NCBI GenBank assembly: GCA_964497435.1
Contig: CAZCCD010000001.1
Span: 87,009-151,008, forward strand
Length of the DNA stretch: 64,000 nt
Source of the DNA: Candidatus Woesearchaeota archaeon
Lineage (GTDB): Archaea; Nanobdellota; Nanobdellia; Pacearchaeales; GW2011-AR1
Reading direction: 5' to 3'
The translations under genes and the position numbers were made by a program. The notes below the pieces were generated by a model. The model made no database searches. It was not told the DNA's origin and worked only from the letters and a program-made list of their open reading frames with translations. Positions 33,516 through 53,301 of this stretch are shown in pieces (positions within the stretch are counted from its first letter, which is position 1; each line of letters opens with the position of its first letter).

Positions 33516-34874
33516 TTAAGCTGCGCTAGTAGAGGTAGCAGCAGAAGCAGCATAACCAGAAATCCTTGACTTTAAATAATGAGTAATTATTATGATAATT
33601 ATAGAGATTATCGCAACAGATAATATCACTATTATAATAATCCACCTAAATGTATCAATCTTTCTAGGTCCTATATCAAACCAGCTACTAGAACTAGCTG
33701 TCTTATCATCATAATTTAATTGAGCATAAAGAACATATTTTCCAAATCCTGATTTAGTTGGTAATGTAAACTCTTTGTCAAAAACAGTCCTGTCAGTTAC
33801 TGTTAACTGTTCATCCTCTCTATAGATTATATTTTCATCTTCATCTTTTATTACATAATTCAATATAACATCTTGAGCTCCTGGCACAAGTTTAGTCAAA
33901 TAGAAGGTTGCAAGGATTTTATCTCCAGGAAGAACATGTTTATATTGATCTAGCATTTCTATGACAATGTCGAACAATGCATCAGGAGATACAACCTCTA
34001 TTGAGAATATTAATTCTTCTTGTTTATAACTTGTCCAGACATTAACCTTTCCAAGATATAAATTAGGCTCTTGGCCTGCACTAGATGTTATGATTGCTTT
34101 TATTGTCCTTGCTTGACCAGCAGGTAAAACAAAGTTATTTCCTCCAATAATGCCTATCATTCCATTATCAGGATTTCCAATATTTACTGTATATGCAACA
34201 TTAGATGGATTTGTAATTGTAAACTCTGCTTCAATACTTCCTCCTTGTAATACCTTAACTTCTACAGGATTTTTATCAATACTAAACTGTGGAAGCGGTC
34301 CTGGAATAACACCACCTCCACCACCTCCACCGCCAGTAGTAGTTGTTGTAGTTCCTCCACAACCTTCATTAATCTGATTATTACAATTATCATCATAGCT
34401 TGTTGAGCAAGATTCTGTTGCTCCTGGATTAACAGCTGCATTAAAGTCATTGCAATCTAGAGTTCCGCAGGCTCCTCCAGTGCCATTATAACCATCACCA
34501 TCATTGTTAATGCAAATTAAAGGAGCGCTTGTATTATAGACTAAATTAAGTTGAGTTGTCTGCTCATTAGCAAAAGTATAATTTGCTGAAAAATATCCAT
34601 CAAGGGTAAATGTAATAACATTTCCATTAACCCCATTTTCAACTAAAAACACTTCATTATATCCATAATACCCATTTTCACTCATCAATTCATTTATTAA
34701 AGAACCATTAATATATGCCTGAACATTGTAGTTTGGAGAGGTTATAATGCTTCCACCAGTATTAACAATTTGCCCGTAAAACTGATGGAAACTAGGTATT
34801 TGCTGTGCATAGGCAAAGCTAACAAAAACAACTACTAAAGCCAATATTAAATTTTTATTAACCATTTTCAACAC
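33516..34874 (-). CDS. surface protein with one MopE-like Cys repeat, Thr/Gly linker and C-terminal TM anchor
   Basis: It has a signal peptide, then CINNDGDGYNGTGGACGTLDCNDFNAAVNPGATESC, a TTTTTTGGGGGGGG linker and a C-terminal hydrophobic stretch WIIIIVILSVAIISIIIIII followed by basic residues. Confidence 0.45.
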   Translation of the reverse strand: MLKMVNKNLILALVVVFVSFAYAQQIPSFHQFYGQIVNTGGSIITSPNYNVQAYINGSLINELMSENGYYGYNEVFLVENGVNGNVITFTLDGYFSANYTFANEQTTQLNLVYNTSAPLICINNDGDGYNGTGGACGTLDCNDFNAAVNPGATESCSTSYDDNCNNQINEGCGGTTTTTTGGGGGGGGVIPGPLPQFSIDKNPVEVKVLQGGSIEAEFTITNPSNVAYTVNIGNPDNGMIGIIGGNNFVLPAGQARTIKAIITSSAGQEPNLYLGKVNVWTSYKQEELIFSIEVVSPDALFDIVIEMLDQYKHVLPGDKILATFYLTKLVPGAQDVILNYVIKDEDENIIYREDEQLTVTDRTVFDKEFTLPTKSGFGKYVLYAQLNYDDKTASSSSWFDIGPRKIDTFRWIIIIVILSVAIISIIIIIITHYLKSRISGYAASAATSTSAA

Positions 34875-37800
34875 TAAATCCTGTTATAGGTATGATTGTT
34901 GATTGATTGTTAACGTAAATCCAGTAAGCTCTTTCTCCTTGAAGATTATCAGTTGGATTTACTGAATCATAATTTCCAGTCAAAGGATTGTAAGTATATA
35001 AATAAGTATAGCTAACTCCTCCAAGTATTTGTGAGGCTTGGTAAGGATTGGAGAAAGTTCCTATTAAATTCCATCCAGGGTTCAAAGATATTGTAGGCCT
35101 TGTTAAATCACCCTGTCTCTTAGATCCATTAATGACTAAGTTAGCAGGGGTATTCATGAATACAAAATAGCCTTTACCTACTTCTAAATTAAATAAGTTG
35201 CTTGGCCTTCCGTCAAAGTGATAAATCTTGAATCCATTATCATAGGTATAAACTGTATCAACATTGCTTCTAATATCTTTAAATACATTTTCTACTGAAG
35301 TATTATCGACAATTAAAGGCAAGCTGAAAGAATTCTTTCCTGTTTGTAAAGGCACACTCCTTATTTCATATCTTTTCTGACTTAATACAACTCTCAATAA
35401 TCCTGCTCCTCTAGGAGATTCATAATTAACACCTTGTATGTTTGCTCTGAAGTAATATTCAGGGTCTCCATTCAATCCAAGTAATCCATCGTCCTGCCAC
35501 TCTGCCTGCCAGACAGATCTTGCAACTCCGTTAACAAAGGTTACATTGTTAGGATTGAATGTTGCAGGATCATCAGCTCCTCCTATAAACTCATCGAGAA
35601 TATTGTCATCTTCCAAGACAGTAAATGAAACTGATTGGCCATTACAATCACTGTTTCCTTCAACAACCACATCAACTAAATCTCCTTCTGTCGCAGATGT
35701 TGTGCTCCAATATCTATTTGTAACAATGCAATTTCCAACAGGACAACCCTCATCAATCTGTCCATAACCAGAATCTCCAGGGCATTGATTATCTATTCCA
35801 TCTCCGCAAGTTTCCGGAGCTCCAGGATAGATAGTTGCTCCAATTCCTACAGTATCATTACAGTCTACAACACCACAACTTCCTCCAGTAACATTGTAAC
35901 CATCACCATCATTATCAGTACATGTAACTACAAGTCCGCAACCAGTAGGAGCTGGGAATTGAATTGGATCACAAGTTTCTCCAGGAGCACATAATGAATT
36001 ATCATTTGTATGTATATCACAAGCATCAGTTGCCTCATTGCAGGAATCGACAGTACAAGAGTAAGGATCAGTATTTACACAGTTTACTGGAGTTCCTGAC
36101 CTACAATCAAGTAAAGAATCACAATATTCAACACCATCACAATATAAACCATTATTACAAACAGCATTATTTGGTGGATGTTCTATTGTATCTGTTGTTT
36201 CATTACAAGAATCAACAGTGCAGGAAACACCGTCGCTAATATTAAGAGGGATTCCATCATCCACACATACCTGGCTCTGGCATCTATCAGCTCCATTACA
36301 ATATAATCCATCATCACAGGCTGTGCCATCTGGCTGGCCAGTGCATGCAGTTATGACTCCGCAACCTGTTGGTGGTGGGAAATAAACAGTATTACAAACC
36401 TGTCCTCCTGAACATAAAGCATCATTCTCTACATTATTACAACTGTCTGTAGATTCATTACAAGAATCAACTGTACAAGAATAAGAGTCAGCACAATTTA
36501 CAGGGGTTCCTGCCTGACAACCTGAAACACCTCCACAAGTCTCATCTCCGTTGCACCATAAAGAATCAGCACACAAAGAATTTCCTCCATTGTCATTTAC
36601 TCCATTGCAATCATTATCTAATCCATCGCAGGTTTCACTACTTGGTGTGCCTGGAACACATGTGCTACTTTGAGCCCCTCCGCTACAAGTGTATACTCCT
36701 GTTGAAGAGCATTGACCTACTCCACAAGTTGTAGGTTGATTATACCATGGCTCATTTACTCCGTCAGATGTTCCTGCATTACAATCATCATCAACACCAT
36801 TACAAATTTCATTCCTACCAGGATTAACACTTGGATTAACATCATTACAATCTGCAATACCGCAACCTGAAGCACTTTGATTATATCCATCACCATCATT
36901 ATCAACACAATAAAGAATATTGATTTGTATTGTTTCCTGTGCCTCTGGATTTGGTGGAGGATTATGTAAAGGATCAGCTAAATGAGTCCTAATAGTATGA
37001 ACACCATTAGCAAGATTATTTATTCTTACAGTATTGGAGTTAATCCAAGTAGCTAAAGGAGTTGGTCCAACTACTTGATTAAACTCTACAACATTATCTG
37101 GAGCATTGTAAAACATTAAATGATCAGCACTTCCATCAACATGGAAATGTATATGATTGCTTCCTTTTCCTCCAACAACCCAATTAACAGTATTGAAAAC
37201 AACTGTAACATTTTGATTATTAATAGTGCTTAAATTCAAAGGAGAAGTTATATCAACACTAGGAATTGGTGTAGGGGCCACACTAAAGTTAATTAAATAA
37301 TCATCTGTGTCTGGATTGAAATTTCCAACAGTGTCATTACACTTAACATAAATGTCATATGCTTGGCCATCAGCAGTAGGCATATTATCGCCATGGAATA
37401 AGCCATTTGTAACACTGAAGGTAGCTACCATTGTAGCATAAGGCTGATTAGGGAAAGGATGATATTTACATGTTGCTGTTTCATCTGTTGTTAAATTAAA
37501 TGGAACAGAAGTTGTTCCGCTAGGGAATACTCTATCTAAAACAGGTTGTCTGTTGCTTCTTACTGGAGGTGTTGTGTCTATTGTTATTGTTCTGGTTGAA
37601 GAAGTTGTGCATAATGAAGAAGTGTCACAAGCTCTTACATACCATGTATGGACCCCACTAGATAATGTACTAGAAAAAAGATAGACTCCATTAATGCCAG
37701 AAGTATTAACCTGGCTAAATACTCCATCAACATATAAGCTGACATTTAGTAAAGCAACATTATCAGTGGCAGTAGAACTGAATGTTACTAAAGGATTGTT

Positions 37801-40260
37801 CGTTGTAGACAAATCTGCAGGGGAGTTTAAAGTTAGAGTTGGAGGTGTTGTATCTCCTGCAACACTAACAGTAAGGGAGAAAGTGCTAGAGCTAGTGCAT
37901 TGTCCAATATTATCACATGCCCTCATAAACCAAGTATAAGCTCCATTACTAAGGATTGAATTAAAGTTATAATTAACACCATTAGCTCCTGATGTGTTTG
38001 TCTGATTCAAAACTCCATTTATGAACAAGCTCACATTAGTTATTCCAGTATCATCACCAACACTTCCCACAAAGTTAATTGAAGAGGCGGTGCTTGTAAA
38101 TCCATTTGTTGGAGAAATCAAGCTAACTACTGGAGGATTGTTTGGAACAGCTCCTCCAGTTCCCCACTGAACTTCAGTCATCCACATTACACTAGTATAA
38201 TTATTTAATGGATTAGACAATCTTATCCATCCCATATTTGCAGGCTGCCACAATCTTAAGCTTGTTGTTGAAACTTGGGAAAAGGCGTAGCTTGAGTTTG
38301 TAACATTATCATTAACTAAGTTATGTTGCGCAGTAGTATTCTGATAACTTCCACTACTGCTATTGAAGTATTGTATCCAAACTTGTTGCGAAACCATATA
38401 ATTCTGCCTGAAGGTATTCCACCCCCACCACATTGTAACATTTCCTATTGTCTGAGGCCCTGTTGTAAAGTTAACAGTAATCCAGTGAGGTCCGCTATTA
38501 TCTGTACCATAGCCACAAGAACCATCTCCTGTACAACTCCCCCATTGTTCTGATGATAATGTACTTGTCAAGACTCCATTAATTAAAACATCTTTGTTAT
38601 AAATAGGAGGAAGATTATAAGCGCTACTAACATTAACAATTACAGCTGGACCTCCTCCAGAAGCAACACTAAATGTGAAAGAATAATCATTAGTATTAAC
38701 ATTTCCAGCTGTATCATTGCATCTTACATAAGTTGTATAGCTGTTTCCATCAGTCAATCCTGATCTAGTACTTGTATGAGAGGTTGTTCCTGCTCCTGCA
38801 AAAGTATTTGTCATAGATGTATATGCAACTCCGGCTGTTGATGACCATTTGCACGTTGCTGCTTCGTTTGTTGCAACACTAATTGATGTAGATGTTGTTC
38901 CAGCTGCAAGAGTTCCTGTTGGCTGGCCGTTTGAAATTATTGGAGGTGTTGTATCTCCGCCAGCACTCACAGTCACACTCCCATCATCAACAATAGGAGT
39001 AATTGTCATAGCAGTATCGTTGTCAATTGTTGAATTAACCCAGATAACATTAGCCACATCTAAAAGAGAAGAGCCACCACCAACAGTACTGAAATTAACT
39101 ATTGCTAAAACTCCATCATCTGTATACAAACCAACATTACTGCTTCCATTTGTCTGGTTTCTTATATTATACATAGACAAGTTTCCAGGAGTCAAAGTAT
39201 AATCGAATAGAGTCACAGCCCCATCACTCCTTAATATAGGGCCTTCAGTTGGTGGAAGATTAACTGACAACACAGCTGGATTAAACAATAAGTCAAATTG
39301 CAATCCATAAATATCGCTGGCTGTAACAGGAGCCTGAATCTTTATGGAGACATTGAAAGTTGCAGGATGAGTTACAGTTTGTGTAGCAGGAGAAACATAA
39401 ACCCTGTCTTGGGAAATTAATTTCTGAACAGTTAAAAGAGGAGCACTGCTTTGGATATTAGTGGAAGGATTTGAAACCAAAACAGCATTAAAATAATATT
39501 CCGGAGGGTCTACTTCAGGAATGCCTTCTCCTTGCCATTCAGCTATCCATGTTGTAGATACCAAGCTTCCTGAAAAAACAGCATTTGCAGGATTTATTAA
39601 TACAGAATCGTCATCTCCAGGGAAAAAGTCATCCTCCCAAATCGTGAAGTTAACAGCTTGTCCAGCGCAAGAAGAAGTCCCGACAACAGTCAAAGTCACT
39701 AAATTTCCTTCTGTCGCTGATGTTGTGCTCCAATAAGCATTTGTAAATTGACAAGGAGTATTTGTAACAGAGCCATTAGTAACAGTGACTCCAGGAATTC
39801 CAACACTCTGATTTGTTATTGTTGAATTAACCCAGATAACATTAGCGAGATTTAGGGGAGAGGTTCCAGCAGAATTAAGTGTAAAGCTAAGAGTTGTAAA
39901 TAAATCATCAGGTGTATTAACTCCTGTTGTTGTTCCATTTCTTGAATTATAAACAGTCACAATTCCTGGAACAGATGAAAAAGTGAAAACAGTTGAAGGT
40001 GCTCCTGTTCCAAGAAGAGGTCCTTCAATCGGAGGAGGATTAAAAGTCAAGATGCTTGGATTATAAGTAAGATTATATTGGACAGCATAAACATCACTCC
40101 CTCCTGTTGGCGCTCTTCCTCTAACCTCGACATTAAAATTACTTCCAACATCAACACTTTGGGAAGGAGGATTAATATAAATTTCTACAGCAGAAACATA
40201 ACTGATTAGTGTAAAAAATATTACAAAGATAAAAAACAACATCCTCTCTTTTTTCTTCAT
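34858..40260 (-). CDS. giant (1800 aa) secreted scaffoldin-like protein with two cohesin-like modules, MopE-like Cys repeats and repeated Ig-like domains
   Basis: It has an N-terminal signal. Residues 24-165 and 286-431 have a cohesin-like pattern (VEIYINPPSQSVDVGSNFNVEVRG…YAVQYNLTYNPSILTF… / …NVSIKIQAP…YGLQFDLLFNPAVLSV…). There are several C..DNDGDGY…DCND…NPG..E.C.G.DDDC repeats and a ~95-aa domain shared with the 48781..53301 product. Confidence 0.55.
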   Translation of the reverse strand: MKKKERMLFFIFVIFFTLISYVSAVEIYINPPSQSVDVGSNFNVEVRGRAPTGGSDVYAVQYNLTYNPSILTFNPPPIEGPLLGTGAPSTVFTFSSVPGIVTVYNSRNGTTTGVNTPDDLFTTLSFTLNSAGTSPLNLANVIWVNSTITNQSVGIPGVTVTNGSVTNTPCQFTNAYWSTTSATEGNLVTLTVVGTSSCAGQAVNFTIWEDDFFPGDDDSVLINPANAVFSGSLVSTTWIAEWQGEGIPEVDPPEYYFNAVLVSNPSTNIQSSAPLLTVQKLISQDRVYVSPATQTVTHPATFNVSIKIQAPVTASDIYGLQFDLLFNPAVLSVNLPPTEGPILRSDGAVTLFDYTLTPGNLSMYNIRNQTNGSSNVGLYTDDGVLAIVNFSTVGGGSSLLDVANVIWVNSTIDNDTAMTITPIVDDGSVTVSAGGDTTPPIISNGQPTGTLAAGTTSTSISVATNEAATCKWSSTAGVAYTSMTNTFAGAGTTSHTSTRSGLTDGNSYTTYVRCNDTAGNVNTNDYSFTFSVASGGGPAVIVNVSSAYNLPPIYNKDVLINGVLTSTLSSEQWGSCTGDGSCGYGTDNSGPHWITVNFTTGPQTIGNVTMWWGWNTFRQNYMVSQQVWIQYFNSSSGSYQNTTAQHNLVNDNVTNSSYAFSQVSTTSLRLWQPANMGWIRLSNPLNNYTSVMWMTEVQWGTGGAVPNNPPVVSLISPTNGFTSTASSINFVGSVGDDTGITNVSLFINGVLNQTNTSGANGVNYNFNSILSNGAYTWFMRACDNIGQCTSSSTFSLTVSVAGDTTPPTLTLNSPADLSTTNNPLVTFSSTATDNVALLNVSLYVDGVFSQVNTSGINGVYLFSSTLSSGVHTWYVRACDTSSLCTTSSTRTITIDTTPPVRSNRQPVLDRVFPSGTTSVPFNLTTDETATCKYHPFPNQPYATMVATFSVTNGLFHGDNMPTADGQAYDIYVKCNDTVGNFNPDTDDYLINFSVAPTPIPSVDITSPLNLSTINNQNVTVVFNTVNWVVGGKGSNHIHFHVDGSADHLMFYNAPDNVVEFNQVVGPTPLATWINSNTVRINNLANGVHTIRTHLADPLHNPPPNPEAQETIQINILYCVDNDGDGYNQSASGCGIADCNDVNPSVNPGRNEICNGVDDDCNAGTSDGVNEPWYNQPTTCGVGQCSSTGVYTCSGGAQSSTCVPGTPSSETCDGLDNDCNGVNDNGGNSLCADSLWCNGDETCGGVSGCQAGTPVNCADSYSCTVDSCNESTDSCNNVENDALCSGGQVCNTVYFPPPTGCGVITACTGQPDGTACDDGLYCNGADRCQSQVCVDDGIPLNISDGVSCTVDSCNETTDTIEHPPNNAVCNNGLYCDGVEYCDSLLDCRSGTPVNCVNTDPYSCTVDSCNEATDACDIHTNDNSLCAPGETCDPIQFPAPTGCGLVVTCTDNDGDGYNVTGGSCGVVDCNDTVGIGATIYPGAPETCGDGIDNQCPGDSGYGQIDEGCPVGNCIVTNRYWSTTSATEGDLVDVVVEGNSDCNGQSVSFTVLEDDNILDEFIGGADDPATFNPNNVTFVNGVARSVWQAEWQDDGLLGLNGDPEYYFRANIQGVNYESPRGAGLLRVVLSQKRYEIRSVPLQTGKNSFSLPLIVDNTSVENVFKDIRSNVDTVYTYDNGFKIYHFDGRPSNLFNLEVGKGYFVFMNTPANLVINGSKRQGDLTRPTISLNPGWNLIGTFSNPYQASQILGGVSYTYLYTYNPLTGNYDSVNPTDNLQGERAYWIYVNNQSTIIPITGFSVENG
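38968..39405 (-). other. cohesin-like module 2 of the scaffoldin-like protein
   Basis: It is an internal repeat of module 1: ATFNVSIKIQAPVTASDIYGLQFDLLFNPAVLSVN…LAIVNFSTVGGGSSLLDVANVIWVNSTI versus …TLSFTLNSAGTSPLNLANVIWVNSTI. Confidence 0.45.
39766..40191 (-). other. cohesin-like module 1 of the scaffoldin-like protein
   Basis: The pattern V.I.…v.vG..fnV.V.…vya.q..L.YnP..L.f……G.l………dlfttl.F.l..aG.s.l is comparable to clostridial cohesin jelly-rolls (…DFVYSYDPNVLEI…). Confidence 0.45.
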
Positions 40261-40350: not shown

Positions 40351-43300
40351 TTAACAATTCTGCCACATATTATTTCTGACTTGAGTGACGTCATTAAAAT
40401 TTATTTGTCCATTTGAATCAATATCCAGCTTTGAATTAACAGAACTTGGATTTCCTTGATTGAAAACAGCTAATGCTAAATCTAATATGTTTACTTTATT
40501 GTCAGAATTAACATCTGCTCCATTGCATCCTGGAGGTTGAGTTGTTGATAACTGATCTAAAGCCTCGCCAATTTGAATTCTCCAGTTTTTGTAAGCATTA
40601 GGATCTTTGTTGAAATTTGTAACATTATTTCTGTCGACAATTGGAACTGATAAAAGAGGATTGTTTGAATCTCTAGCTTCAAGCAAATACAAACTTTCCA
40701 AATCCTCAATACCATCTCTAAAACTTTCATATCTTAAAGAACTATAAACATCTCTATTTACTCCTGGATAAACTAACAAACCATCTAAAGATCTTGAAGG
40801 GTTTGCAGAATTAACATTCCAATTAACTCTTAACTCATTACTTGGAATTGAATAATAATTTGAAAAACTCCATGTTGAAAAAATCTGCCAGTATTCAAAT
40901 CCTTGAATGTTATATCTATAAGATAAAGGTCCCATGATTCTCGCATTTATTAATTCCATGTCAACAAATAAATTTGGTGGAGAATCTGGCCAAATATTCA
41001 CGTTCCACCAAAAATCCTGAAATTGAGATGGATAAGTTGTCCTGTAAAAATCAGAGTTAGTTACTTGATACCATCCGAGATTTATATCGATTGCATCAAA
41101 AAATCCTCTCAAGGTTTCTAAGATTGCGTTGTTGTTTTGGTTTGTGTTTTGCATAAAAGGAATATCATTTGCAACATTATTTTTTATAAAAGTGTAAGTT
41201 TGTTTTGCATGATCAACTTGTGTGCCCCATGGTTCATCAAGACCATAAACATAACTTATATTTAGTAAATTGTCTCCTCTGAAATTCAAGTAATTTCTAT
41301 AATCAGTTAAATAAGTCCTCAACTGATTTTCTCTTGTTGTTATTACACTTGGGTTTGAATCTTCATAAATGTCTCCTGTGTAAGCTGTGAAGAAATGATT
41401 CGCACCTTTATTTAACATATAATCAATTAAAATTCCTGTCCTTGTAGAATTGAAAACCCCTGAATCATGAGTTGGGTATCCATAGCCGCTTGAACTTCCG
41501 TAACTCCAAAAGCTTGAGGCCATTCCCCAGACAGGTGGTAATCTATTTTTAAATCCTAACTCAGAGACTTTCATCATCTGATTCCATCTGTCATTTGTAG
41601 TCAGGCCAGACCACATTGCATTGAGAGTTCCCCATTGAAAAAAAGATGTTGTCTTGAATTTTCCTTTTTGAGGTATTTCAAAATTCCAGATTTTCACATT
41701 TATCGTTGCTGTGTCTTTAACAACACCATTCTCTTTAATTGTAATTGTTCCTGTGTAATTTCCTGCTTTAGTTGTATTTAAAGAATAAACAGTAATTAAA
41801 TAAGGCTGTAAAACATTGTTTGTTAAATTCAAAACCTGATTTGGAAGAAGCGGATCTGGCTGCCATCCTGCTCTTCCTCTGCTTGATTGAATTAAATTAA
41901 CATAGCCAACAGGATTTATTTCAATATCAGAAAAAGGAATTGTTTCAATGCCATCGATTTTCTGTAAATTTGAAACAGAAACCTCGACATTCTGTAAATT
42001 TGCACTCGGGAAAATAACAAGCTGTGTTGCCTCGTAATCATTTTTTGCCATGTAAACCTGTGTGTTTTTTGTCATTGTTCCATTAAAGTCATTTGGAGCT
42101 TCAAAGTAAACTTTGTCTAGAGAATCTGTAAAACCAATTGTGAAGTTTGGAGACGAAGACGCTGAAACATATTCATAAGCTCCGATGTCTGGGGCAGAAC
42201 CATACCATAATTTACAACCTGTTTGTGTCGGATCTATTGATGCTGAAACATTACAATGATATCCTGGGACAATTGTTCCGTTGTCGATGGCTGGAGAGCC
42301 TGCTTGAAGTCTAAAATTATTATTAACCGCGTCAACAAATAATGGATTTGCTTGAACATCATTGTCACCATAAAGGGTATTTGCTCTCCATTCAGTTATG
42401 TTCCAAAGGTTGTATGTCCCGCCTATTTTCCATTGGATTACTTTATCATTGGCAGAATTATAATAGAGGTTATAGTTTTCCGCGAAATCATAAAGCTGAG
42501 TGGAGACATCATTAACTGGCGAGAATAATTGATAATTAGAATTCATACCGATGTTATTTAAAAAACTCAAATTCCCCATTAACCCATTTCCATTATAAAA
42601 ATAAAGAGAGTACCCCCTATCACATCCATAAACAACATTATTGAAAAATTTAGCACCATAAAGATTTATATCTTTTCCAGTGTCGCTAGAAGGAAGCATT
42701 CCGGAATCACCGCAACCATAGATAACATTTTCATAAATATCTGAAGAACCGAGAGCATATCCACCTATTCCCCAATCTGAATTGTAAATAATGTTTCTTC
42801 TGAAGACATTGTTTCTAATTGGTCCTATTCCAGTATCATCACCCTTCATTCTTATTCCCCATCCATTATCATGAATAATATTTTCTTCTACTATTGAATC
42901 TTTGGCGCTATATGCCCCAACCCCGTATGTATTAAATGTAGCTCTAGGAGAATTTGGTCCTGCAAAATCGTCATCTTCCCAATTTCTGTAGATTTCACAG
43001 CCTTTAACAGTTATGTTGTATGAATTCCCACCATAAGCCATCATAACCCCCCCATTATTATTTTGCCCATAAACAACAGTGTCATGAATAGAACAATTCT
43101 TTATAGTTATCATGAAACTTCCAGTTGTCCACACACCCCTATACCCTCCACTGATTTCTACTCCATCAATAATTATCCATTGTTTTGAAGCCAAATATAC
43201 TGCGGCTCTAAGATTAGATAAAGAAGAATTTCCAAGAAAAATAGGTCTTGCATAATTTGGATGTGCTTTGTAAGTAATATAGTTTCCTGGTGTTCCAGAG

Positions 43301-43611
43301 TTCATATTTGGAGAACATAAAACACCACAACGAATAGGATATCCTAATGCATTCATTCCATCTGTAGTGTCTGTATAATAGGGTTGTCCAGGATTCTCCT
43401 CATAATAAGTTCCACCCATAATAAGAACAGTGTCTCCTGCAACCATTGTTGTTGAGGCCTTGTATATGGTTCTCCAAGGAACACTCTCAGTTAATCCATT
43501 ATTAGAATCATCCCCGCTGTTGGAAACATAATAAGTTGCAGCAGAAACAGAATTTAGATTTACGAATAAAAATAACGATGCAACAATTATCATCAAACTC
43601 TTTTTTAACAT
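40351..43611 (-). CDS. secreted right-handed beta-helix protein (1086 aa) with C-terminal dockerin-like module (type A)
   Basis: It has a signal peptide and PbH1-type repeats (IHDNGWGIRMKGDD…NNVFRRNIIYNS…YENVIYGC). The C-terminal module reads CNGADVNSDNKVNILDLALAVFNQG…LDIDSNGQINFNDVTQVRNNMWQNC. Its start overlaps the stop of the 43605..44765 gene. Confidence 0.6.
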   Translation of the reverse strand: MLKKSLMIIVASLFLFVNLNSVSAATYYVSNSGDDSNNGLTESVPWRTIYKASTTMVAGDTVLIMGGTYYEENPGQPYYTDTTDGMNALGYPIRCGVLCSPNMNSGTPGNYITYKAHPNYARPIFLGNSSLSNLRAAVYLASKQWIIIDGVEISGGYRGVWTTGSFMITIKNCSIHDTVVYGQNNNGGVMMAYGGNSYNITVKGCEIYRNWEDDDFAGPNSPRATFNTYGVGAYSAKDSIVEENIIHDNGWGIRMKGDDTGIGPIRNNVFRRNIIYNSDWGIGGYALGSSDIYENVIYGCGDSGMLPSSDTGKDINLYGAKFFNNVVYGCDRGYSLYFYNGNGLMGNLSFLNNIGMNSNYQLFSPVNDVSTQLYDFAENYNLYYNSANDKVIQWKIGGTYNLWNITEWRANTLYGDNDVQANPLFVDAVNNNFRLQAGSPAIDNGTIVPGYHCNVSASIDPTQTGCKLWYGSAPDIGAYEYVSASSSPNFTIGFTDSLDKVYFEAPNDFNGTMTKNTQVYMAKNDYEATQLVIFPSANLQNVEVSVSNLQKIDGIETIPFSDIEINPVGYVNLIQSSRGRAGWQPDPLLPNQVLNLTNNVLQPYLITVYSLNTTKAGNYTGTITIKENGVVKDTATINVKIWNFEIPQKGKFKTTSFFQWGTLNAMWSGLTTNDRWNQMMKVSELGFKNRLPPVWGMASSFWSYGSSSGYGYPTHDSGVFNSTRTGILIDYMLNKGANHFFTAYTGDIYEDSNPSVITTRENQLRTYLTDYRNYLNFRGDNLLNISYVYGLDEPWGTQVDHAKQTYTFIKNNVANDIPFMQNTNQNNNAILETLRGFFDAIDINLGWYQVTNSDFYRTTYPSQFQDFWWNVNIWPDSPPNLFVDMELINARIMGPLSYRYNIQGFEYWQIFSTWSFSNYYSIPSNELRVNWNVNSANPSRSLDGLLVYPGVNRDVYSSLRYESFRDGIEDLESLYLLEARDSNNPLLSVPIVDRNNVTNFNKDPNAYKNWRIQIGEALDQLSTTQPPGCNGADVNSDNKVNILDLALAVFNQGNPSSVNSKLDIDSNGQINFNDVTQVRNNMWQNC

Positions 43612-44765: not shown

Positions 44766-44845
44766 TTTATTTTTTAATTACTAATACCAAGCTCCCCCTT
44801 ATAAGTATTTCTGTAAGTTTTATTCTTTCTCATATTAACACCTTT

Positions 44846-45385
44846 TTATCCTAATAATTTTTTCATCTCAAATACAAATGTTTTCGCTCTATCTAATGAA
44901 GTCATGGCTTTTGACTTTTTAATTTGTTCGTCCATTTGATACTGAAATTTTGAACGTTTCTCTCTTTCATAATCAAATGATTGTAAAAGCGAATCTGCTT
45001 TCGAAGAGATTAGCTCCATGGCATCATCTTTTATATTCTCATACTCTTCGATTAACCCTTTTTTTAATTTGTCTCTTACAAAGACTATCAAAGCGTCACT
45101 AGTTATTTTATGGCTTATCTTATCTCCTACTTTATATCCAATTTTAAGCAACACTGCGTTGGCAATGTAGTACATAGCATAGTAAGATGAAACAATTATC
45201 CATAAATAGGGTTTATAAGTATCTGTTTCAAGAGTTAGGAGTTTTTGTGTTGTTTCTAATGAATTGTTGCTGTTCTCTACGTACATTTGTCTTGCTGTTT
45301 CGTTTTTTTGCTTCTTTAATAGACTCTCTTCTAAATATCTTTTTACATTTGATTCAGCTTCCTTAATTCTTTCTTTGCTAAGCAT
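44846..45385 (-). CDS. HEPN-like protein (partner of the adjacent MNT)
   Basis: It is all-helical, with 'YYAMYYIANAVLLKIGYKVGDKISHK' as a possible HEPN R/Kx4-6H region. It overlaps the upstream MNT gene by 8 nt. Confidence 0.3.
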   Translation of the reverse strand: MLSKERIKEAESNVKRYLEESLLKKQKNETARQMYVENSNNSLETTQKLLTLETDTYKPYLWIIVSSYYAMYYIANAVLLKIGYKVGDKISHKITSDALIVFVRDKLKKGLIEEYENIKDDAMELISSKADSLLQSFDYEREKRSKFQYQMDEQIKKSKAMTSLDRAKTFVFEMKKLLG

Positions 45386-45953
45386 TTTTTAACCTATAAT
45401 AATGTTCTATTCCATATAAGATTATATTATTATCTATTGCTTCTTGAACAACATTGGTTTTTTTAGAATCTTTCATCCTAATAAATTCCTCTTCACTAAA
45501 CACTAAAACATGAGTCTTAATAGGCAGTAATGAAAGGAGATTAGATATTTTTTCTTCGAAATTCTTTTCATTCGAGATAAACATTATATCTATATCTGAG
45601 GATTTAGTTGACTTTTTTTTTGCATATGAACCAAATATCAAGAAAATAAAAGAATTAACCTTTATCTCAGACATTATTTCCTTGTACAATTGTTTAATAT
45701 CTTTATTCTTAAGCAAGGTTTCCTTTCTCTCATTTTCTGCTTTGTATATCTCAATACCATAATAAGAACCATTTAACTCACATAGTGTGCTTTTTCCAAC
45801 ATTTTTTGATAAAAGAATCCTTTTACTTAACAGCTTCTGTGTGGCTATGTATGTTATCTTATAATCTGCTTTAATTTTTTTTGAAATTTCTCTAATGGTT
45901 TTAGGTTCTTTCTCTTCTATAAATAAGATTATTATTTTATTTTCTGTTTTCAT
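45378..45953 (-). CDS. winged-HTH + minimal nucleotidyltransferase (MNT) protein, paralog of the 350..934 product
   Basis: 'IFGSYAKKKSTKSSDIDIMFIS' is the NTase motif. The N-terminal wHTH is similar to the 350..934 protein. Confidence 0.5.
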   Translation of the reverse strand: MKTENKIIILFIEEKEPKTIREISKKIKADYKITYIATQKLLSKRILLSKNVGKSTLCELNGSYYGIEIYKAENERKETLLKNKDIKQLYKEIMSEIKVNSFIFLIFGSYAKKKSTKSSDIDIMFISNEKNFEEKISNLLSLLPIKTHVLVFSEEEFIRMKDSKKTNVVQEAIDNNIILYGIEHYYRLKNA

Positions 45954-46010: not shown

Positions 46011-47819
46011 TTAACAACTCATTCCAAGCCTATTTCTAACCTCACTAACATCTTGATAATTTATAACAGAGTCTTGACTATTAACATTTAAATGATCTCT
46101 ACCAGTTAATGATTGTCCTTGATTATAAATAACCAATGCTAAATCAATAATATTTATGATTAAATCGTCGTTGACGTCGGCTTGTTGACATGTCACAATT
46201 GGAATTCCTGGATTATACTCATAAGCTCCCATGTCAGGAGCACTTCCATACCATAATTTACAACCAACTTGATTTGGATCTATCGATGCTGAAACATTGC
46301 AGTGATATCCTGGAACTTTAACACCGCCATCGATGGCTGGAGAAGTTAAAGGATTTGGCCTTAAGAAATCTGGAGAAGAGGGGTTTGTTGAGAGGAATTG
46401 GGGATTGAGTTGTTTTGAATTAATTTCTAAGTCTGGCCTAATTGTCCTCAATGTGTTTAGGTCGTAATTAGAAGTACCGTACTGAATCACGCCGGTTTCG
46501 AAATCATCATAATAAATATTATAACCTGATTTTAAGTCGAGAATATCATTTGGGCTCTCTAACAATAAATTTTCCCCTCCTGAAAGACCATAATTGATTA
46601 TCATGTTATTGTATAGGGTAGAATTCAAATTTTGATTACCAGGCCCGCTATTAAAATCAATACCAGTCTCGCTGGGCGTATTTGCTAAAATATTATTAAA
46701 AACCCTAACATTTCTTAGATGAGAATCGCATCTGTCCTCCATATCCCTTAATTGGATATCGGGGCCGTAATATTTCCAACCATTAGGAAAATTACCTGAT
46801 GAATTGTATATTACATTCTCATATACATCATTGTCTCCAGTATATCTAGGAGGAGGACCATAATCTCCCCAACCATCATACAATACAGGACACCAGATAG
46901 CTATATCTACTCCATTCCGAGTGAATTTGTTTCTTCTAATAATGCTATTAGATACCATCTGCTTGAAGAAAATCGCAAAAGTACCAACATCATGAATATA
47001 GTTGTCTTCAATTGTCACATTCTTGGTTCTGTAAATATTTATTCCAGCACAGTTTGCGGCAAGACAAACACCTCCCCCATCAGTTTCCATTATTGGTCCG
47101 TATATTTCGTTTCCCCTAATCACTATGTTATTGGAAGGGTTGTAGTAGATGCCAATGTGGGCGCAGTTCTCCCCTCCCGTACCAAGATTGTCGTGAATGA
47201 CACTATCTTGGACAGTAACCCAATCTGCGAAGAAGAAAACTCCGCCACAAGCTGATTTTGTAAATTCCATGTGATCGACGGTCTGATAAGAAGAAAGGCA
47301 GGCAGCCTGATGCCAATAATCATTATCATATCCCGCTAGCCTTGCATAAGTCGGACCAGTGTGATAACCCATAACTATTGTTCTTGGATAATCTGGATGG
47401 CCTTTAAATATTGTGGGGATTCCCAGAGTTCCAGAATTCTCAGGATGTAATGTGGCGCCACCACCCCAATTACAAGGTTTAGTAGGGACTTCATTATAAG
47501 TTCCTCCTAAAAAAATCACAACATTTCCCGACGCTGCCGTGTTAGCCTTTGCCATTGTGCACCAAGGCTGTGAAAAGGTTCCAGCCCCAGCATCACTACA
47601 ACTCGGGTTTACCTTATTCACATATCTAAATTGTCCACTCGGACATTGACTATAATAATCTCCCCTAAACCAGACACCATTTGCTCCATTATTTGTGTCG
47701 CAGCAATATCCTGTTCCATCAGGATAAGTTTGGTTTCCGCAACTTATGACTGCAGAAATATTTTGAGATAAATTTACAACTAACATCAAAGCAAAAATCA
47801 ACAATAAACCTCTTTTCAT
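46011..47819 (-). CDS. secreted right-handed beta-helix protein (602 aa) with C-terminal dockerin-like module (type A)
   Basis: It has a signal peptide and PbH1-like repeats (VIHDNLGTGGENCAHIGIYYN…IRGNEIYG…IEDNYIHDVG). The C-terminal 100 aa are almost identical to the 1646..3718 product (…WYGSAPDMGAYEYNPGIPIVTCQQADVNDDLIINIIDLALVIYNQGQ…). Confidence 0.6.
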   Translation of the reverse strand: MKRGLLLIFALMLVVNLSQNISAVISCGNQTYPDGTGYCCDTNNGANGVWFRGDYYSQCPSGQFRYVNKVNPSCSDAGAGTFSQPWCTMAKANTAASGNVVIFLGGTYNEVPTKPCNWGGGATLHPENSGTLGIPTIFKGHPDYPRTIVMGYHTGPTYARLAGYDNDYWHQAACLSSYQTVDHMEFTKSACGGVFFFADWVTVQDSVIHDNLGTGGENCAHIGIYYNPSNNIVIRGNEIYGPIMETDGGGVCLAANCAGINIYRTKNVTIEDNYIHDVGTFAIFFKQMVSNSIIRRNKFTRNGVDIAIWCPVLYDGWGDYGPPPRYTGDNDVYENVIYNSSGNFPNGWKYYGPDIQLRDMEDRCDSHLRNVRVFNNILANTPSETGIDFNSGPGNQNLNSTLYNNMIINYGLSGGENLLLESPNDILDLKSGYNIYYDDFETGVIQYGTSNYDLNTLRTIRPDLEINSKQLNPQFLSTNPSSPDFLRPNPLTSPAIDGGVKVPGYHCNVSASIDPNQVGCKLWYGSAPDMGAYEYNPGIPIVTCQQADVNDDLIINIIDLALVIYNQGQSLTGRDHLNVNSQDSVINYQDVSEVRNRLGMSC

Positions 47820-48321: not shown

Positions 48322-48372
48322 AATAAAACAAATAAAAAACCTTATATAAATTTAATTGAGAAGAGTTATTAT

Positions 48373-48720: not shown

Positions 48721-48780
48721 ATTAAAATATATTGTTTTATCTTTATATATTTTTTGGTAGTTATTACTATAAAGAAATAA

Positions 48781-51700
48781 CTATTCAACTCCAGAAACTT
48801 TAGGAACTGTTTTTGTTGTAGTTGAAGAACTAGAAAAACTAATTAAATAATCATCTTTATTTGGATTATTGTATGTATCTTTACACTTAATATAATAATT
48901 GTAAGTTTTTCCATTTGTCAAGCCAGTTATAATTTGTGTGTGGTTTGTGCTGTTGGTTGTTGTAAAAGTGTTTGTCATTGAATCGTACAAAACATTTGAA
49001 GTTGTTGAATATTTACAAGTTGATATTTCATCTGTTGTTAATGAAATTGTTGTTTGTGTTGTTCCACTTGATAGAGTTCCTGAAGGTTTTCCATTTGACC
49101 TTATTGGAGGAATTGTATCTGCAGGAGTTATATCAATGATTATTCCAGAAGCGGCTAATTCTGACTCAATGTTTTGTAATTCATCTTGTGTGTAAGTTGT
49201 TTGTGTGCCTGAAACTTGGTTAGAACAAATTGGTGCAGGGCCTCCTTTAAATATGCTATTGACTAAATAAATAATATCAGCCGCAGAAATTTTTGTGTCC
49301 CCATTTGCATCAGCTGCCTCTAGTATTTCAGGAGCTTGACCACCTTTAAATATATGGTTGACTAAAAATATTATATCTGCACTCGTAATCCTTCCATCAT
49401 TATTAGCATCTCCGCAATAATCACTAAATCTCATTTCCTCCAAATTATCATTATAGGCACTATCTCCAATCAAACTAGGCCTTATGTAATTTAAATTAGG
49501 CCAATCACTAACCAAGTCAGTAATCTTAAAACTCAAGACAAGAACATTGTCATTTCCTTCAGAAATGCTTTGGAAATTTGTGTTAGAATCATAATTGTAT
49601 AAATGGAATTTCATTGCTTTTTCAGAGGCAGAAATATATATTGGTGAAATAGGATTTGTATTATAAATATTCATTGATGATGCCCTTCCTTGAACACTTG
49701 AGTAATAAGGCTCATAATAATATTTGCTTGAGTCATATCTTAATATAGTCTCTAAACCTACAACTGGAGCATTATTTTCTAAATTAAATGTTATATCAAC
49801 ATAAGGAGCACTTGTCGGTATTGGTTGGCCAATTGAATTAGGATCTCTTCTCCATACAACAGGACTAACTTGATAATCAACAATGGCTTTATTAATTGAT
49901 AACGGAATTTTCTGGCATTGTTGAGAATTTCCATTAACTAAATATTTTTTCATTAATAAATAATCTCCAACATCAACCTTGTTATTTTTGTCAAAATCAT
50001 AATTATCCCAATACTCGAGTGAATTAGTATTTAAATTTTTTAAGGTAATCCAGTATAATTCATTCAAATCATTAGTTGTAAAAGTTTCAAAATCTAAGTC
50101 AACATCTCCGCAATATAAATTAACATCAGTGCAGCTTAATCCATCAGGAGAACAGAATGGAGTATTGGAAGGACAGCCGCAGACATCGCATCTTTGTGGA
50201 AAAGGAGCCAGTTCTCTGTTAACTTTAACAGCGCCTTTTGACATATAATAAGAATGGAAAAGGTTTCCATTTTCATATGTTAATTTATAAAACCCATCAA
50301 GAGTGTCTCTATTATTTGGAAAACACCTTGAACCAGAACATTTGTTATCAGGCCATAAAACTTCCCAATCAGGAGTTTGGTGATTTATACCTAATCCAGA
50401 TAAATAATAATAATCTTTACTCAATCCTTCGGAATCTTCAGCACATTGTGTTGACTGAAATCTTCCTGTAACATGGTTTTTTACAAAATAATGAAAGTAC
50501 ATAATTTTGTGGTAAGATTCTTCTAGTCCAGCATAAGCCCCCCTAATACATGACCAATCATCTCCGGCACATCCAGAAAATGAAACACTACGACAATCAT
50601 CAAATCCAGGCCATCCGCAAAATGCATTAATGCCATCATTCCCATTAGGGTTAGTAACTCCAACTATATTCCAACAATCTCTTAAACAATCACCATTATC
50701 ATTAGGGTCACACATGTGCAAAACATTATCTCCTAATGGGCCATTAGTTTCTCCTCCGAATTGCCTGCTACCACCCGGCAAAATAGAGTATATCCCTCTT
50801 CTCCAATCACCAGGAGGCAAATCATAGTAAACTGGTTTTGGATCAGAGACTATAGCTAAAAGCTCACATGCGTCATTTTCATTTCCTCTGCCTGCTGTTC
50901 TGTAAACACAAACCATTCTCGGCATCTGGTCATGGAATTTGTCTAAACTCTGATAACTAACTTTATGGGATAATAAACTCCCGTCATCATAATTAACTGT
51001 TAGTTTGGCATCATAAAAACATCCTGGGACCTCTGCATCGGTATCAATCTGTCCAAGTATTCCTTCTTCTACCTCCCCCACTCCATTGACGCCAGGAACA
51101 TCTGTCCAAGTCCCTGATAAGTCTTTTCTTTCAATTTTCCAATTAATTACATTCTTGTCGCTTTCACCTGCAGCCCCTTCCACATTTCTTGCCCTTCCGA
51201 AATAATCTGCATCTGTTGTGTCTATAAAAGTGTCTTCTTGTTCTAAAGGATAATTAATCCCATGATATCTCGAGCTTTTAGTTTCATCAGGAAAGAGTTG
51301 TATACATTCCCAATAAGGAATTCCATGTTCTACCCAAAATGCCAGACATATTTCGTTAATATGATCTCTATCTTCATCAACTAAATAATAAAGAAAAGTT
51401 GGATAATCTACTGGGCCGCCAATCCCCCGCATTAATACTCTCATAACTGTTTCTGAAACCTCCTTTCCAGTAAATCCAAGATTTAACATACTATATCTAT
51501 ATCTTGCAAGTGCAATTAAGAGAACATCCCCTCTCAAATGATCTTCTGAAAGCCAAAATTCAGGACTGTCATATCTTGAAGGACCGTATGAAAGTGGAAT
51601 AATATTTAACCCTTCTATTTCCCAAAAAAGATTCAAACTTAAAAATTCTGCTACACCCTCTCGCAACCCCCTAAATTCTGGATCATCATCATAAAAATTC

Positions 51701-53301
51701 CAATTCTCTAAACCCATTAAAGATGCATGTAACATATGCCCCATCTCATGAGAAACTGTAAGTTCATCTAAAGAGAATGGCTCACTCCTCCCTATGCGTT
51801 TAGATATAAGGATTTCTCTATTCTCTGCGTCAGCTGTTCCTGCTGTATCATCATCCTCAAAATCATGGTTTATTTTTATCTGAATGTCTGGCATCATAAA
51901 TATGCTGGGGTTTTCAATATCATGAACATAATAGTTATAAAACTGGGTGGCATAAAATAAAGTTGATGATGCTTCTTTCTTATAAGATTGATCCCCTAAG
52001 AGAGGATCAGAATAGTCAAAGTTATAAGGTGTATCAGGATACATTTTTTCTCCTTCAAGATCACTAACTAACAAGCCGTTATCTGATAATCCAATAACAG
52101 TTACAATCGGCCATGTGTTATCGAAAAGATCTTTATTCCAAGTGCTGAAAGTGAATATAGGAGTTATTTCAATTTCTGTAGAGTCAAATTCAAAATTCCC
52201 CTCTCTATCAGCTGCGGCAAAAGATCTATTACAGTCAATATCAAGATTACATCCAAGTATTTCTGTACAAGGCAATCCATCAATAGAACATATATCTAAG
52301 GTTTTATTATCGTCATTATCACTATCAAAACAATAATTATCTCTGCATGATCTAAGAAAGTATGAATCACAAAACGATCTTTCATCAAACTCAAGGCTCT
52401 CAGAAAGTATACACGACCCATAATCATTGCCATCATCATAAAAAATGCCTATTCTTGGGAATGGCTCTTTTTTAGGCACCCGATTAAGATCTTCATCATA
52501 CCAAAGATATTCTCCTTCTATGCTGCCAGAATAACGGGCATAATTTATTAAATTTTTGATAAGGAGTATCTCTCCTGTATGGGCGTCAACTAAATACATC
52601 AAGCTTATATGTTCTACTTCATAGTCTGGAAGAATTTCCCACACTAAATGATAAGTCGTTAACTCTTTTTCAACCTTAGGATAAATTTTAAGCGCTCCTC
52701 TAGAAGATGAAAAAATATTATTATCATTTTCAACCTCATATTCTTTTACAATCCTTTCAGCTTCTTCCTTTGTTATACTTGGATTTACATCTAGATTTAT
52801 GTTGGGATTAAAATTAGATTCATAAGACCTAAGCTTACTGTCTTTGAATGCTAGTTTGGTGTAGCTTCCCATAACACGAATTCCCTTATATTCTTGATAA
52901 AAATTAACTACACCAAGATCTTCATTAGATAATCTAGCTGGTGGAGAATAATATGCTTTATCTAAAATTATTTTTTCATTGTCAACTTTTAATATTGCTT
53001 TATTGCTTTGAAGAAATTCTCGTGTTGCTTCTTCAAGGTTCTCTTTGTTAATATTAACATTTGTAACAGAAATACCTAGTTTTGAGTAAATTCTGTTGGG
53101 GATTTTTGTTTCCTTATCATACCCAATTTTAACACCTTCTTTTTCTAATGTTTGTTCAAGGCTTGTAGTCCTTTCTATTGAAAAGAAAAATTTTCCTCCT
53201 TCCTTAATAGCCAATCCAGTAAAACCTTTAGTTAGTAAGAATACAATTATGAATACGCCAAGTAAACCTAAGATTAGCAGTCTTTGAGCCTCTTTTCTCA
53301 T
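48781..53301 (-). CDS. giant (1506 aa) secreted zincin metalloprotease with dockerin-like module (type B) and C-terminal Ig-like domain
   Basis: It has an N-terminal signal/TM and an HExxH motif (VSHEMGHMLH) followed by a downstream Glu. Residues about 1290-1356 read GDANNDGRITSADIIFLVNHIFKGGQAP…[27 protein letters not shown]. The C-terminal ~95-aa domain is shared with the scaffoldin-like protein (…PPIRSNGKPSGTLSSGTTQTTISLTTDEISTCKY…). Confidence 0.55.
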   Translation of the reverse strand: MRKEAQRLLILGLLGVFIIVFLLTKGFTGLAIKEGGKFFFSIERTTSLEQTLEKEGVKIGYDKETKIPNRIYSKLGISVTNVNINKENLEEATREFLQSNKAILKVDNEKIILDKAYYSPPARLSNEDLGVVNFYQEYKGIRVMGSYTKLAFKDSKLRSYESNFNPNINLDVNPSITKEEAERIVKEYEVENDNNIFSSSRGALKIYPKVEKELTTYHLVWEILPDYEVEHISLMYLVDAHTGEILLIKNLINYARYSGSIEGEYLWYDEDLNRVPKKEPFPRIGIFYDDGNDYGSCILSESLEFDERSFCDSYFLRSCRDNYCFDSDNDDNKTLDICSIDGLPCTEILGCNLDIDCNRSFAAADREGNFEFDSTEIEITPIFTFSTWNKDLFDNTWPIVTVIGLSDNGLLVSDLEGEKMYPDTPYNFDYSDPLLGDQSYKKEASSTLFYATQFYNYYVHDIENPSIFMMPDIQIKINHDFEDDDTAGTADAENREILISKRIGRSEPFSLDELTVSHEMGHMLHASLMGLENWNFYDDDPEFRGLREGVAEFLSLNLFWEIEGLNIIPLSYGPSRYDSPEFWLSEDHLRGDVLLIALARYRYSMLNLGFTGKEVSETVMRVLMRGIGGPVDYPTFLYYLVDEDRDHINEICLAFWVEHGIPYWECIQLFPDETKSSRYHGINYPLEQEDTFIDTTDADYFGRARNVEGAAGESDKNVINWKIERKDLSGTWTDVPGVNGVGEVEEGILGQIDTDAEVPGCFYDAKLTVNYDDGSLLSHKVSYQSLDKFHDQMPRMVCVYRTAGRGNENDACELLAIVSDPKPVYYDLPPGDWRRGIYSILPGGSRQFGGETNGPLGDNVLHMCDPNDNGDCLRDCWNIVGVTNPNGNDGINAFCGWPGFDDCRSVSFSGCAGDDWSCIRGAYAGLEESYHKIMYFHYFVKNHVTGRFQSTQCAEDSEGLSKDYYYLSGLGINHQTPDWEVLWPDNKCSGSRCFPNNRDTLDGFYKLTYENGNLFHSYYMSKGAVKVNRELAPFPQRCDVCGCPSNTPFCSPDGLSCTDVNLYCGDVDLDFETFTTNDLNELYWITLKNLNTNSLEYWDNYDFDKNNKVDVGDYLLMKKYLVNGNSQQCQKIPLSINKAIVDYQVSPVVWRRDPNSIGQPIPTSAPYVDITFNLENNAPVVGLETILRYDSSKYYYEPYYSSVQGRASSMNIYNTNPISPIYISASEKAMKFHLYNYDSNTNFQSISEGNDNVLVLSFKITDLVSDWPNLNYIRPSLIGDSAYNDNLEEMRFSDYCGDANNDGRITSADIIFLVNHIFKGGQAPEILEAADANGDTKISAADIIYLVNSIFKGGPAPICSNQVSGTQTTYTQDELQNIESELAASGIIIDITPADTIPPIRSNGKPSGTLSSGTTQTTISLTTDEISTCKYSTTSNVLYDSMTNTFTTTNSTNHTQIITGLTNGKTYNYYIKCKDTYNNPNKDDYLISFSSSSTTTKTVPKVSGVE
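49215..49440 (-). other. dockerin-like module (type B) inside the metalloprotease
   Basis: It has the same duplicated DANxDG…[14 protein letters not shown] segments as the 12054..13919 product. Confidence 0.5.

Follow-up and report, generated by a model that had tools for sequence, protein, structure and literature searches.

In the clostridial cellulosome, typified by CipA of Clostridium thermocellum, enzymes ending in dockerins assemble on a cohesin scaffoldin, and modules of both kinds are also documented in archaea. Binding between archaeal cohesins and dockerins was verified in Archaeoglobus fulgidus, whose system is non-cellulolytic (Bayer 1999 and Haimovitz 2008, as cited in PMC9012536). 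The archaea surveyed by Peer 2009, as summarised in the same paper, yielded no multi-cohesin scaffoldin, and the modules are documented widely in anaerobic methanotrophic (ANME) archaea, multi-cohesin proteins included (Chadwick et al. 2022, PMC9012536). Here we describe a cluster of such genes in a 64-kb window (G+C ~32%), by which we mean the whole analysed stretch of contig CAZCCD010000001.1. An earlier reading made from the letters alone (hereafter the sequence-only reading) had seen in it a cellulosome-like surface assembly and had held cohesin-dockerin pairs to be rare in archaea, a view that the A. fulgidus and ANME examples contradict. We conclude that a DPANN (Woesearchaeota/Nanoarchaeota-like) archaeon probably encodes, in this window, a cohesin-dockerin assembly system of non-cellulosomal type, with a secreted two-cohesin protein of 1800 amino acids (aa), p1800, as its scaffoldin.

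The cluster resembles the clostridial cellulosome in combining a cohesin scaffoldin with enzymes that end in dockerins, and of its two dockerin families one (type B) resembles the symmetric type I dockerins, while the other (type A) best matches the type II dockerin of CipA. Unlike the cellulosome, however, it has two cohesins only, its dockerins are Cys-flanked, the cohesins of its relatives are anchored by transmembrane (TM) helices, and its cargo comprises polysaccharide lyase (PL)-like, beta-helix, GH123-like and HExxH proteins. Pfam and NCBIfam scans of the window system detected no cellulase or other cellulase-type glycoside hydrolase, no carbohydrate-binding module (CBM, including CBM3) and no surface-layer homology (SLH) module, and no sortase signal was recognised on reading the C-termini. 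What survives of the cellulosome-like label is therefore the multi-cohesin scaffoldin with its dockerin-bearing enzymes, and what falls away is cellulase or hemicellulase cargo, CBMs and SLH or sortase anchoring. The A. fulgidus cohesin (2XDH) is archaeal, has the same fold and is the best Foldseek match, at only 17% sequence identity to the window cohesin; what differs here is that two cohesins sit in one 1800-aa protein, whose gene cluster encodes four or more dockerin enzymes that look cognate. The ANME systems are likewise archaeal, extracellular and non-cellulosomal, with scaffoldin-like multi-cohesin proteins, but their common cargo is ABC-transporter substrate-binding proteins, and in some genomes S-layer domain proteins carry dockerins (PMC9012536), whereas the cargo here is lyase- or hydrolase-like and the host a DPANN archaeon. 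Within the library searched, no paper linked cohesins or dockerins to Woesearchaeota, Nanoarchaeota or DPANN genomes, and a bacterium of the candidate phyla radiation (CPR) with cohesin and dockerin genes has been noted in the literature. The lineage-specific features are the Cys-flanked dockerins, the TM-anchored cohesins and a conserved operon of scaffoldin and membrane partner; the conceptual advance is modest, because the module families have long been known and are already annotated automatically in Nanoarchaeota metagenome-assembled genomes (MAGs).

The scaffoldin, its modules and the adjoining membrane protein are laid out as follows; related proteins and loci are referred to by P and L numbers.

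34858-40260, reverse strand: p1800, scaffoldin-like giant secreted protein, 1800 aa
39757-40188, reverse strand: first cohesin (Coh1), residues 25-168 of p1800
39409-39753, reverse strand: X module between the cohesins, a copy of direct repeat D7, conserved in the L007 ortholog
38959-39405, reverse strand: second cohesin (Coh2), residues 286-434 of p1800, 39% identical to Coh1
35386-35730, reverse strand: second copy of the X module (direct repeat D7)
34861-35376, reverse strand: C-terminal domain of p1800, ~170 aa, to which the L004 and L007 orthologs align with their C-termini
33516-34874, reverse strand: p452, membrane protein with signal peptide, MopE motif, immunoglobulin (Ig)-like domains and C-terminal TM helix

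The cohesins of p1800 are genuine. Scanned as isolated modules, Coh1 (residues 25-169, 31.5 bits) and Coh2 (residues 285-435, 28.2 bits) both pass the Pfam Cohesin (PF00963) cut-off of 24.1 bits; a Pfam scan of full-length p1800 did not report Cohesin. A hidden Markov model (HMM) of the family gave Coh2 186 bits, Coh2 itself being among the 14 sequences that built the model. Orthologs score 38-81 bits against PF00963; eight of the 12 database homologs of the cohesin have a precomputed PF00963 match, and a ninth, without one, was named 'cohesin domain-containing protein [Nanoarchaeota archaeon]' by NCBI auto-annotation. Run against PDB sequences, the 14-module family profile found only cohesins at E values (E) of 0.05 or below, the best being 1g1k (E 6.7e-7). 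The AlphaFold2 (AF2) model of Coh1 (predicted local distance difference test score, pLDDT, 84.8; predicted template-modelling score 0.82) is a beta-sandwich whose strand pattern is consistent with a nine-stranded jelly roll, and its top 50 Foldseek matches in PDB are all cohesins, with 2XDH first (E 7.8e-8) and template-modelling scores of 0.73-0.79 for the best. Pfam, the profile search and the predicted fold of the first region thus agree with the two cohesin modules that the sequence-only reading had placed in this protein. In our own HMM scan of all open reading frames (ORFs) in the window, cohesins of the p1800 family and dockerins of types A and B turned up nowhere else.

The residues that are nearly invariant in the family, W119, V120, N121, S122, I124 and N126 ('VIWVNSTITN'), lie on predicted strand 8 of Coh1 and the loop that follows it. 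In solved cohesins, strand 8 is part of the 8-3-6-5 face that binds the dockerin. In a neighbour-joining tree, Coh1 groups with the anchored cohesins P0002 and P0003, with which it shares the signature 'TNQSVGIPGVT', and Coh2 falls in a different clade. In the window, a cohesin of the 'TNQSVGIPGVT' clade stands alongside Cys-clasped type A dockerins, and P0003 probably lies on one 23,632-bp contig with P0062 and P0063, two beta-helix proteins that carry dockerins of this same type.

Along p1800, the signal peptide is followed by Coh1, the X module, Coh2, Ig-like modules, Cys-rich MopE repeats, the second X module and the C-terminal domain; the X module, a discoidin-like region and the C-terminal domain have no Pfam match, and no TM anchor, dockerin or known anchor was recognised in the protein. 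Woesearchaeota/Nanoarchaeota MAGs encode orthologs of 1714-1964 aa (42% identity over the first 725 aa); in those of 1714 and 1964 aa, both N-terminal cohesins are retained along with the X module, the MopE repeats and the ~170-aa C-terminal domain. The p452 gene overlaps the p1800 stop by 17 nt. Its L007 ortholog (38% identity, E 7e-80) holds the same overlapping position, and the P0002 contig is arranged likewise, so that the pair of scaffoldin and p452-type membrane protein recurs in two of the three contigs in which the downstream flank of a scaffoldin gene is visible. The order of enzyme gene(s), scaffoldin gene and p452-like gene, with overlapping stop and start, is kept in the window, L007 and the P0002 contig, and gyrB lies near the cluster in both L007 and the window. 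We regard p452 as a candidate tether for the scaffoldin. MopE-type repeats occupy the centre of p1800 (35731-36915), recur in p452 and are found six times in a 783-aa secreted protein with 64 Cys (19582-21933); these Cys-rich, putatively metal-binding repeats are a building block common to the surface proteins of this organism.

Every ORF named by the sequence-only reading was found in place, and the dockerin-bearing proteins are these:

1646-3718, forward strand: p690, beta-helix (Beta_helix 26.2 bits) and type A dockerin (3530-3715)
12054-13919, reverse strand: p621, CARDB domain (33.8 bits) and type B dockerin (12162-12362)
13194-13208, reverse strand: HESLH...WLTEGF motif of p621
40351-43611, reverse strand: p1086, DUF1565 beta-helix, GH123-like domain and type A dockerin (40354-40539)
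43605-44765, reverse strand: p386, alginate-lyase-like beta-jelly roll and type A dockerin (43608-43793)
46011-47819, reverse strand: p602, beta-helix (Beta_helix 30.1 bits) and type A dockerin (46014-46202)
48781-53301, reverse strand: p1506, N-terminal anchor or signal, Cys-rich region and Ig-like module
51736-51750, reverse strand: HEMGH motif of p1506
49915-50118, reverse strand: degenerate dockerin of p1506
49420-49914, reverse strand: orphan module of p1506, ~165 aa
49225-49419, reverse strand: type B dockerin of p1506

The window thus holds seven dockerin modules in six secreted proteins, and all proteins of the system begin with a hydrophobic, signal-like segment. The seventh module, the degenerate one in p1506 (residues 1062-1129, 27.3 bits), comes in addition to those recognised before; the division of the others into two sequence families of genuine modules on secreted proteins stands. 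Type B is the clearer of the two families against Pfam Dockerin_1 (PF00404, cut-off 22.9 bits), with 52.6 bits in p1506 and 32.4 bits in p621, and a single type B sequence matches the C. thermocellum type I dockerins in PDB at E 1.6e-6. Its two halves are identical at 23 of 29 positions in one module and 19 of 29 in the other, and both canonical Ca loops are kept; such near-perfect internal duplication is a hallmark of functional dual-binding type I dockerins. The type A modules score 23.5 (p690), 20.2 (p1086), 18.6 (p386) and 18.5 bits (p602, scanned alone), and the type-A-like modules of relatives 26-38 bits. A profile of eight type A modules nevertheless retrieves dockerins first from PDB, the best being the type II X-dockerin of CipA (2b59_B, E 8.3e-6), with calmodulins among the weaker matches from about E 0.05. 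The type A Ca loops, with D or N at positions 1, 3 and 5 and D at 12, can be read directly (DVNDDLIINIID and DINTDGLITFND), and their halves are identical at only 8 of 25 positions, which makes the module asymmetric. The C-terminal modules had been interpreted as Ca-binding F-hand pairs, and the duplicated loops of type B and the readable loops of type A agree with this, apart from the second loop of p602, which is degenerate (NVNSQDSVINYQD).

The type A modules, the type B module of p1506 and its degenerate dockerin have one Cys directly before loop 1 and another at the module end; the type B module of p621 has its first Cys within loop 2 instead, and the pair is absent from the dockerins of more distant relatives. 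Known dockerins have their N- and C-termini tied by a non-covalent intramolecular clasp (Slutzki et al. 2013, PMC3821032). The window dockerins would likewise have their termini joined, but by a Cys pair forming a putative disulfide, and to judge from its position the pair is possibly a disulfide version of that clasp.

The cargo includes, as had been proposed, right-handed beta-helix domains, in three proteins (p1086, p602 and p690). Those of p602 and p690 terminate in a choice-of-anchor-Q motif, and p1086 joins its helix (DUF1565, 29.1 bits; Choice_anch_Q match) to a GH123-like domain (GH123_cat, PF13320, 50.6 bits against a cut-off of 23.1, plus N-terminal GH123 domains). The cargo region of p386 has no Pfam match; its AF2 model (pLDDT 85, confident at residues 30-320) is closest in Foldseek to the PL36 alginate lyase Aly36B (E 1e-12, target-normalised template-modelling score 0.73, sequence identity ~15%), followed by PL14 alginate lyases, TtX122, the PL20 glucuronan lyase and an ulvan lyase. 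Those of its 55 database homologs that are named come from bacteria (Elusimicrobia, Planctomycetota, Gemmatimonadales), and in 14 of the 55 the position of the dockerin is taken by the Por_Secre_tail domain of the type IX secretion system. The two zincin proteases that the sequence-only reading had counted in the cargo stand as motifs, but a match to a peptidase family or PDB peptidase is lacking. HExxH occurs in only two of the 37 ORFs, p1506 and p621, against 0.17 expected, and in both it is followed by a Glu (HEMGH...REGVAEF in p1506; HESLH-x14-E, WLTEGF, in p621). A downstream Glu in an 'EGF/EGV' context is typical of gluzincins. Neither HExxH region matches a peptidase in Pfam or PDB, and the one weak match, which covers the N-terminal part of a model for the M36 family, was read as the propeptide region; we regard p1506 and p621 as putative gluzincins by motif. 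The orphan module between the two dockerins of p1506 was considered as a third cohesin (residues ~1130-1294) and rejected, the sole signal being a Pfam Cohesin match at E 0.021 and hhalign against the family profile giving a probability of 0.5%. The module found no homologs in a word-indexed search, and an exhaustive HMMER search of 1.84 billion representatives returned only p1506.

Pairs of MNT nucleotidyltransferase and HEPN genes adjoin dockerin genes in the window (350-1463 and 44846-45953) and in a related locus (L009:3295-4360), and a further pair lies ~8.5 kb upstream of cohesin genes (L007:295-1376). The 56 nt at 1599-1654 and at 44757-44812, in each case upstream of the next secreted gene, share 96% identity, and so do the signal-peptide regions at 44696-44765 and 47750-47819. 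The gene pairs beside dockerin genes, together with these near-identical stretches, suggest a duplicated or recombined module.

That cohesins and type A dockerins work together is argued by their gene neighbourhoods. Searched with the cohesin profile, genomes yielded eight related loci, seven of them in Woesearchaeota/Nanoarchaeota MAGs and the eighth on a 2.6-kb CPR-binned contig; the type A profile, run against metagenomes, found only two short ones, L012 among them. The CPR-binned contig, L003 (PEWP01000049.1, 'Candidatus Gribaldobacteria'), encodes a two-cohesin protein 48% identical to that of the window; misbinning is the probable explanation, and transfer between ultra-small archaea and bacteria the alternative. 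Type-A-like dockerin genes adjoin p1800-family cohesin genes in five contigs besides the window (L006, L008, L009, L012 and the P0002 contig); for L008, whose dockerin ORF stands at the contig start, the link to the 749-aa ORF beside the cohesin gene was deduced from contig-end overlap. In the window and in L012, where the scaffoldin gene encodes two cohesins, dockerin genes lie directly upstream of it, and in the P0002 contig and L006 both are in the same cluster. This conserved adjacency argues for a working pair, and on these sequence grounds the type A dockerins likely bind the p1800 cohesins. Some cohesin proteins of relatives (L006, P0001) themselves end in a second dockerin class, which implies hierarchical assembly.

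Most cohesin homologs are small anchored proteins of 280-390 aa, in which a signal peptide precedes a single cohesin and an S/G-rich linker leads on to a C-terminal TM helix with a basic tail. The anchored single and double cohesins (P0002-P0011, L006:1836-3338, L007:9920-10960, L008:4632-5567 and L009:4428-5615) share a juxtamembrane motif, F(L/P)x(L/F)TGxxI...(S/T)W(A/V/I)FYFI, that precedes the TM helix and basic tail. It matches none of the curated C-terminal sorting-signal (NCBIfam CTERM) models and may be a signal for sorting or anchoring that is peculiar to this lineage.

We propose that the three beta-helix proteins, one with its GH123-like domain, and the jelly-roll protein would plug their type A dockerins, with Ca2+, into Coh1, Coh2 or both, and in related genomes also into the membrane-anchored single-cohesin proteins. 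The scaffoldin would be held at the cell by the co-transcribed, membrane-anchored p452, or else by its own conserved C-terminal domain. Such a complex would concentrate polysaccharide-, glycoconjugate- and protein-degrading activities at the cell surface, where the target may be a biofilm matrix or a host envelope, with its anionic polysaccharides, glycoconjugates and proteins, for scavenging. The type B proteins p1506 and p621 may belong to the same kind of system, with Coh2 as a candidate partner.

Several observations weigh against this proposal. The PF00404 check, passed by both type B modules, is passed by only one of the four type A modules, the other three falling below the cut-off, and AF2 renders the p386 dockerin as two helices (334-350, 372-381) at a pLDDT of only 44-57. 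The conserved 'WVNSTITN' motif of the cohesins holds N-glycosylation sequons, which could mask the binding face. The p1800 protein could simply be released from the cell, because it has no dockerin, TM helix or known anchor; it is also for want of a recognisable anchor that the location at the surface, which had been claimed outright, is here something that we infer. Finally, the 64-kb window encodes no membrane-anchored cohesin, and no type B module occurs in any related cohesin locus examined.

The last of these points bears on whether type B belongs to the system. The type B modules, and possibly the degenerate dockerin too, might stand outside cohesin pairing, as Ca2+-binding modules for stabilisation or adhesion or as leftovers of bacteria-derived genes, which would leave a system with one specificity and not two. 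Besides the lack of type B in related loci, the failure of the candidate third cohesin in p1506 speaks for this, as does the proposal that non-cellulosomal dockerins serve as adhesins (PMC10066038), but type B keeps both canonical Ca loops and its near-perfect internal duplication, and Coh2, being of a different clade from Coh1, could be its partner; we hold such a role outside pairing to be possible, if doubtful. The idea of two specificities on one two-cohesin scaffold is not supported; synteny links only type A to these cohesins.

Another arrangement would have the type A enzymes dock mainly onto anchored single-cohesin proteins encoded elsewhere, with p1800 chiefly a giant adhesin or matrix protein whose cohesins bind something else. 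The predominance of anchored 280-390-aa proteins among the cohesin homologs is in keeping with it, and so are the presence, in L007 and on the P0002 contig, of an anchored single-cohesin gene within the scaffoldin cluster, the grouping of Coh1 with P0002 and P0003, and the dominance of Ig-like and Cys-rich MopE repeats in p1800. This arrangement nevertheless appears unlikely to us, with no anchored cohesin encoded in the window, the scaffoldin cohesins belonging to the same family with the invariant motif kept, and dockerin genes placed directly upstream of the scaffoldin or in its cluster. It seems quite improbable that the system is a DPANN-specific assembly directed at a host, whether with Coh1 and Coh2 differing in specificity (disulfide-clasped type A as against type B or the degenerate dockerin) and so arranging lyase/hydrolase and protease subunits in fixed sequence along a giant protein that extends to the host envelope, or with the cohesins docking onto dockerins that the host encodes; if true, episymbionts would attach and feed by way of cohesin-dockerin pairing. 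We give very little credence to the cluster being a host-attachment device and not an enzyme scaffold, its cohesins binding dockerin-bearing host surface proteins, since although p1800 is giant, repeat-rich, of surface type and without an anchor of its own, no host is identified and the cognate-looking dockerins encoded beside cohesins in six contigs, the window included, explain the cohesins without invoking one.

The source of the window is, by sound inference from its genes, a small DPANN-type archaeon, because archaeal markers lie in the window and the relatives of its key proteins come from Candidatus Woesearchaeota/Nanoarchaeota MAGs, in line with the archaeal host that had been suggested. 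The markers are:

6004-7182: aIF2-gamma (Pfam eIF2_C listed for an identical product)
5030-5857: archaeal D-Tyr-tRNA deacylase (DTD2)

On the P0002 contig, moreover, the archaeal ribosomal proteins L7Ae, S28e and L24e adjoin the related operon. A CPR or other bacterial origin of the window was considered and rejected on account of aIF2-gamma/eIF2_C, the archaeal DTD2 and this contig with archaeal ribosomal proteins beside the operon. Scans of the window found no tRNA genes and no Rfam families. Read from their translations, GyrA (23601-27347, 1248 aa) and GyrB (28584-32147, 1187 aa) each contain an intein-sized insertion.

Other parts of the window carry further secreted proteins and repeats. 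Three paralogous secreted proteins (7710-8753, 9209-10423 and 10454-11212) have a common C-terminal region of ~150 aa (direct repeat D1), and the first two of them, which were scanned, have no credible Pfam match. The N-terminus of a 1129-aa surface protein (55928-59317), in which the basic motif MVYKRYIRRR..GKLKLFGPYYY.. is followed by a TM helix, closely resembles that of the cohesin-bearing P0006 (L005:3530-5665) from a Nanoarchaeota MAG, and by this resemblance it looks like a shared membrane-anchor module. A repeated intergenic element occurs at 54423-54557, 55776-55910 and 62937-63025, with an inverted copy at 4900-4983, the copies being 89-97% identical; the copy at 62937-63025 lacks an internal segment of ~45 nt. 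Its short form has a compact multi-stem fold with an 8-bp closing stem, then a T-run. With no Rfam or tRNA match and an inconsistent orientation relative to flanking genes, the element could be a small non-coding RNA gene with and without an insert, or similar to a miniature inverted-repeat transposable element.

As a probable non-cellulosomal assembly of enzymes on cohesins, the cluster bears on a group whose surface biology is mostly obscure. DPANN archaea have tiny genomes, and this one spends ~20 kb on cohesin-dockerin genes, which suggests how such cells may hold degradative enzymes at their surface or at the contact with a host. The cluster widens the range of multi-cohesin scaffoldin-like proteins in archaea, and its Cys-flanked dockerins and TM-anchored cohesins are of possible use in protein engineering. 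It brings no new principle, but its clonable module pairs offer a testable handle on the surface biology of DPANN archaea.

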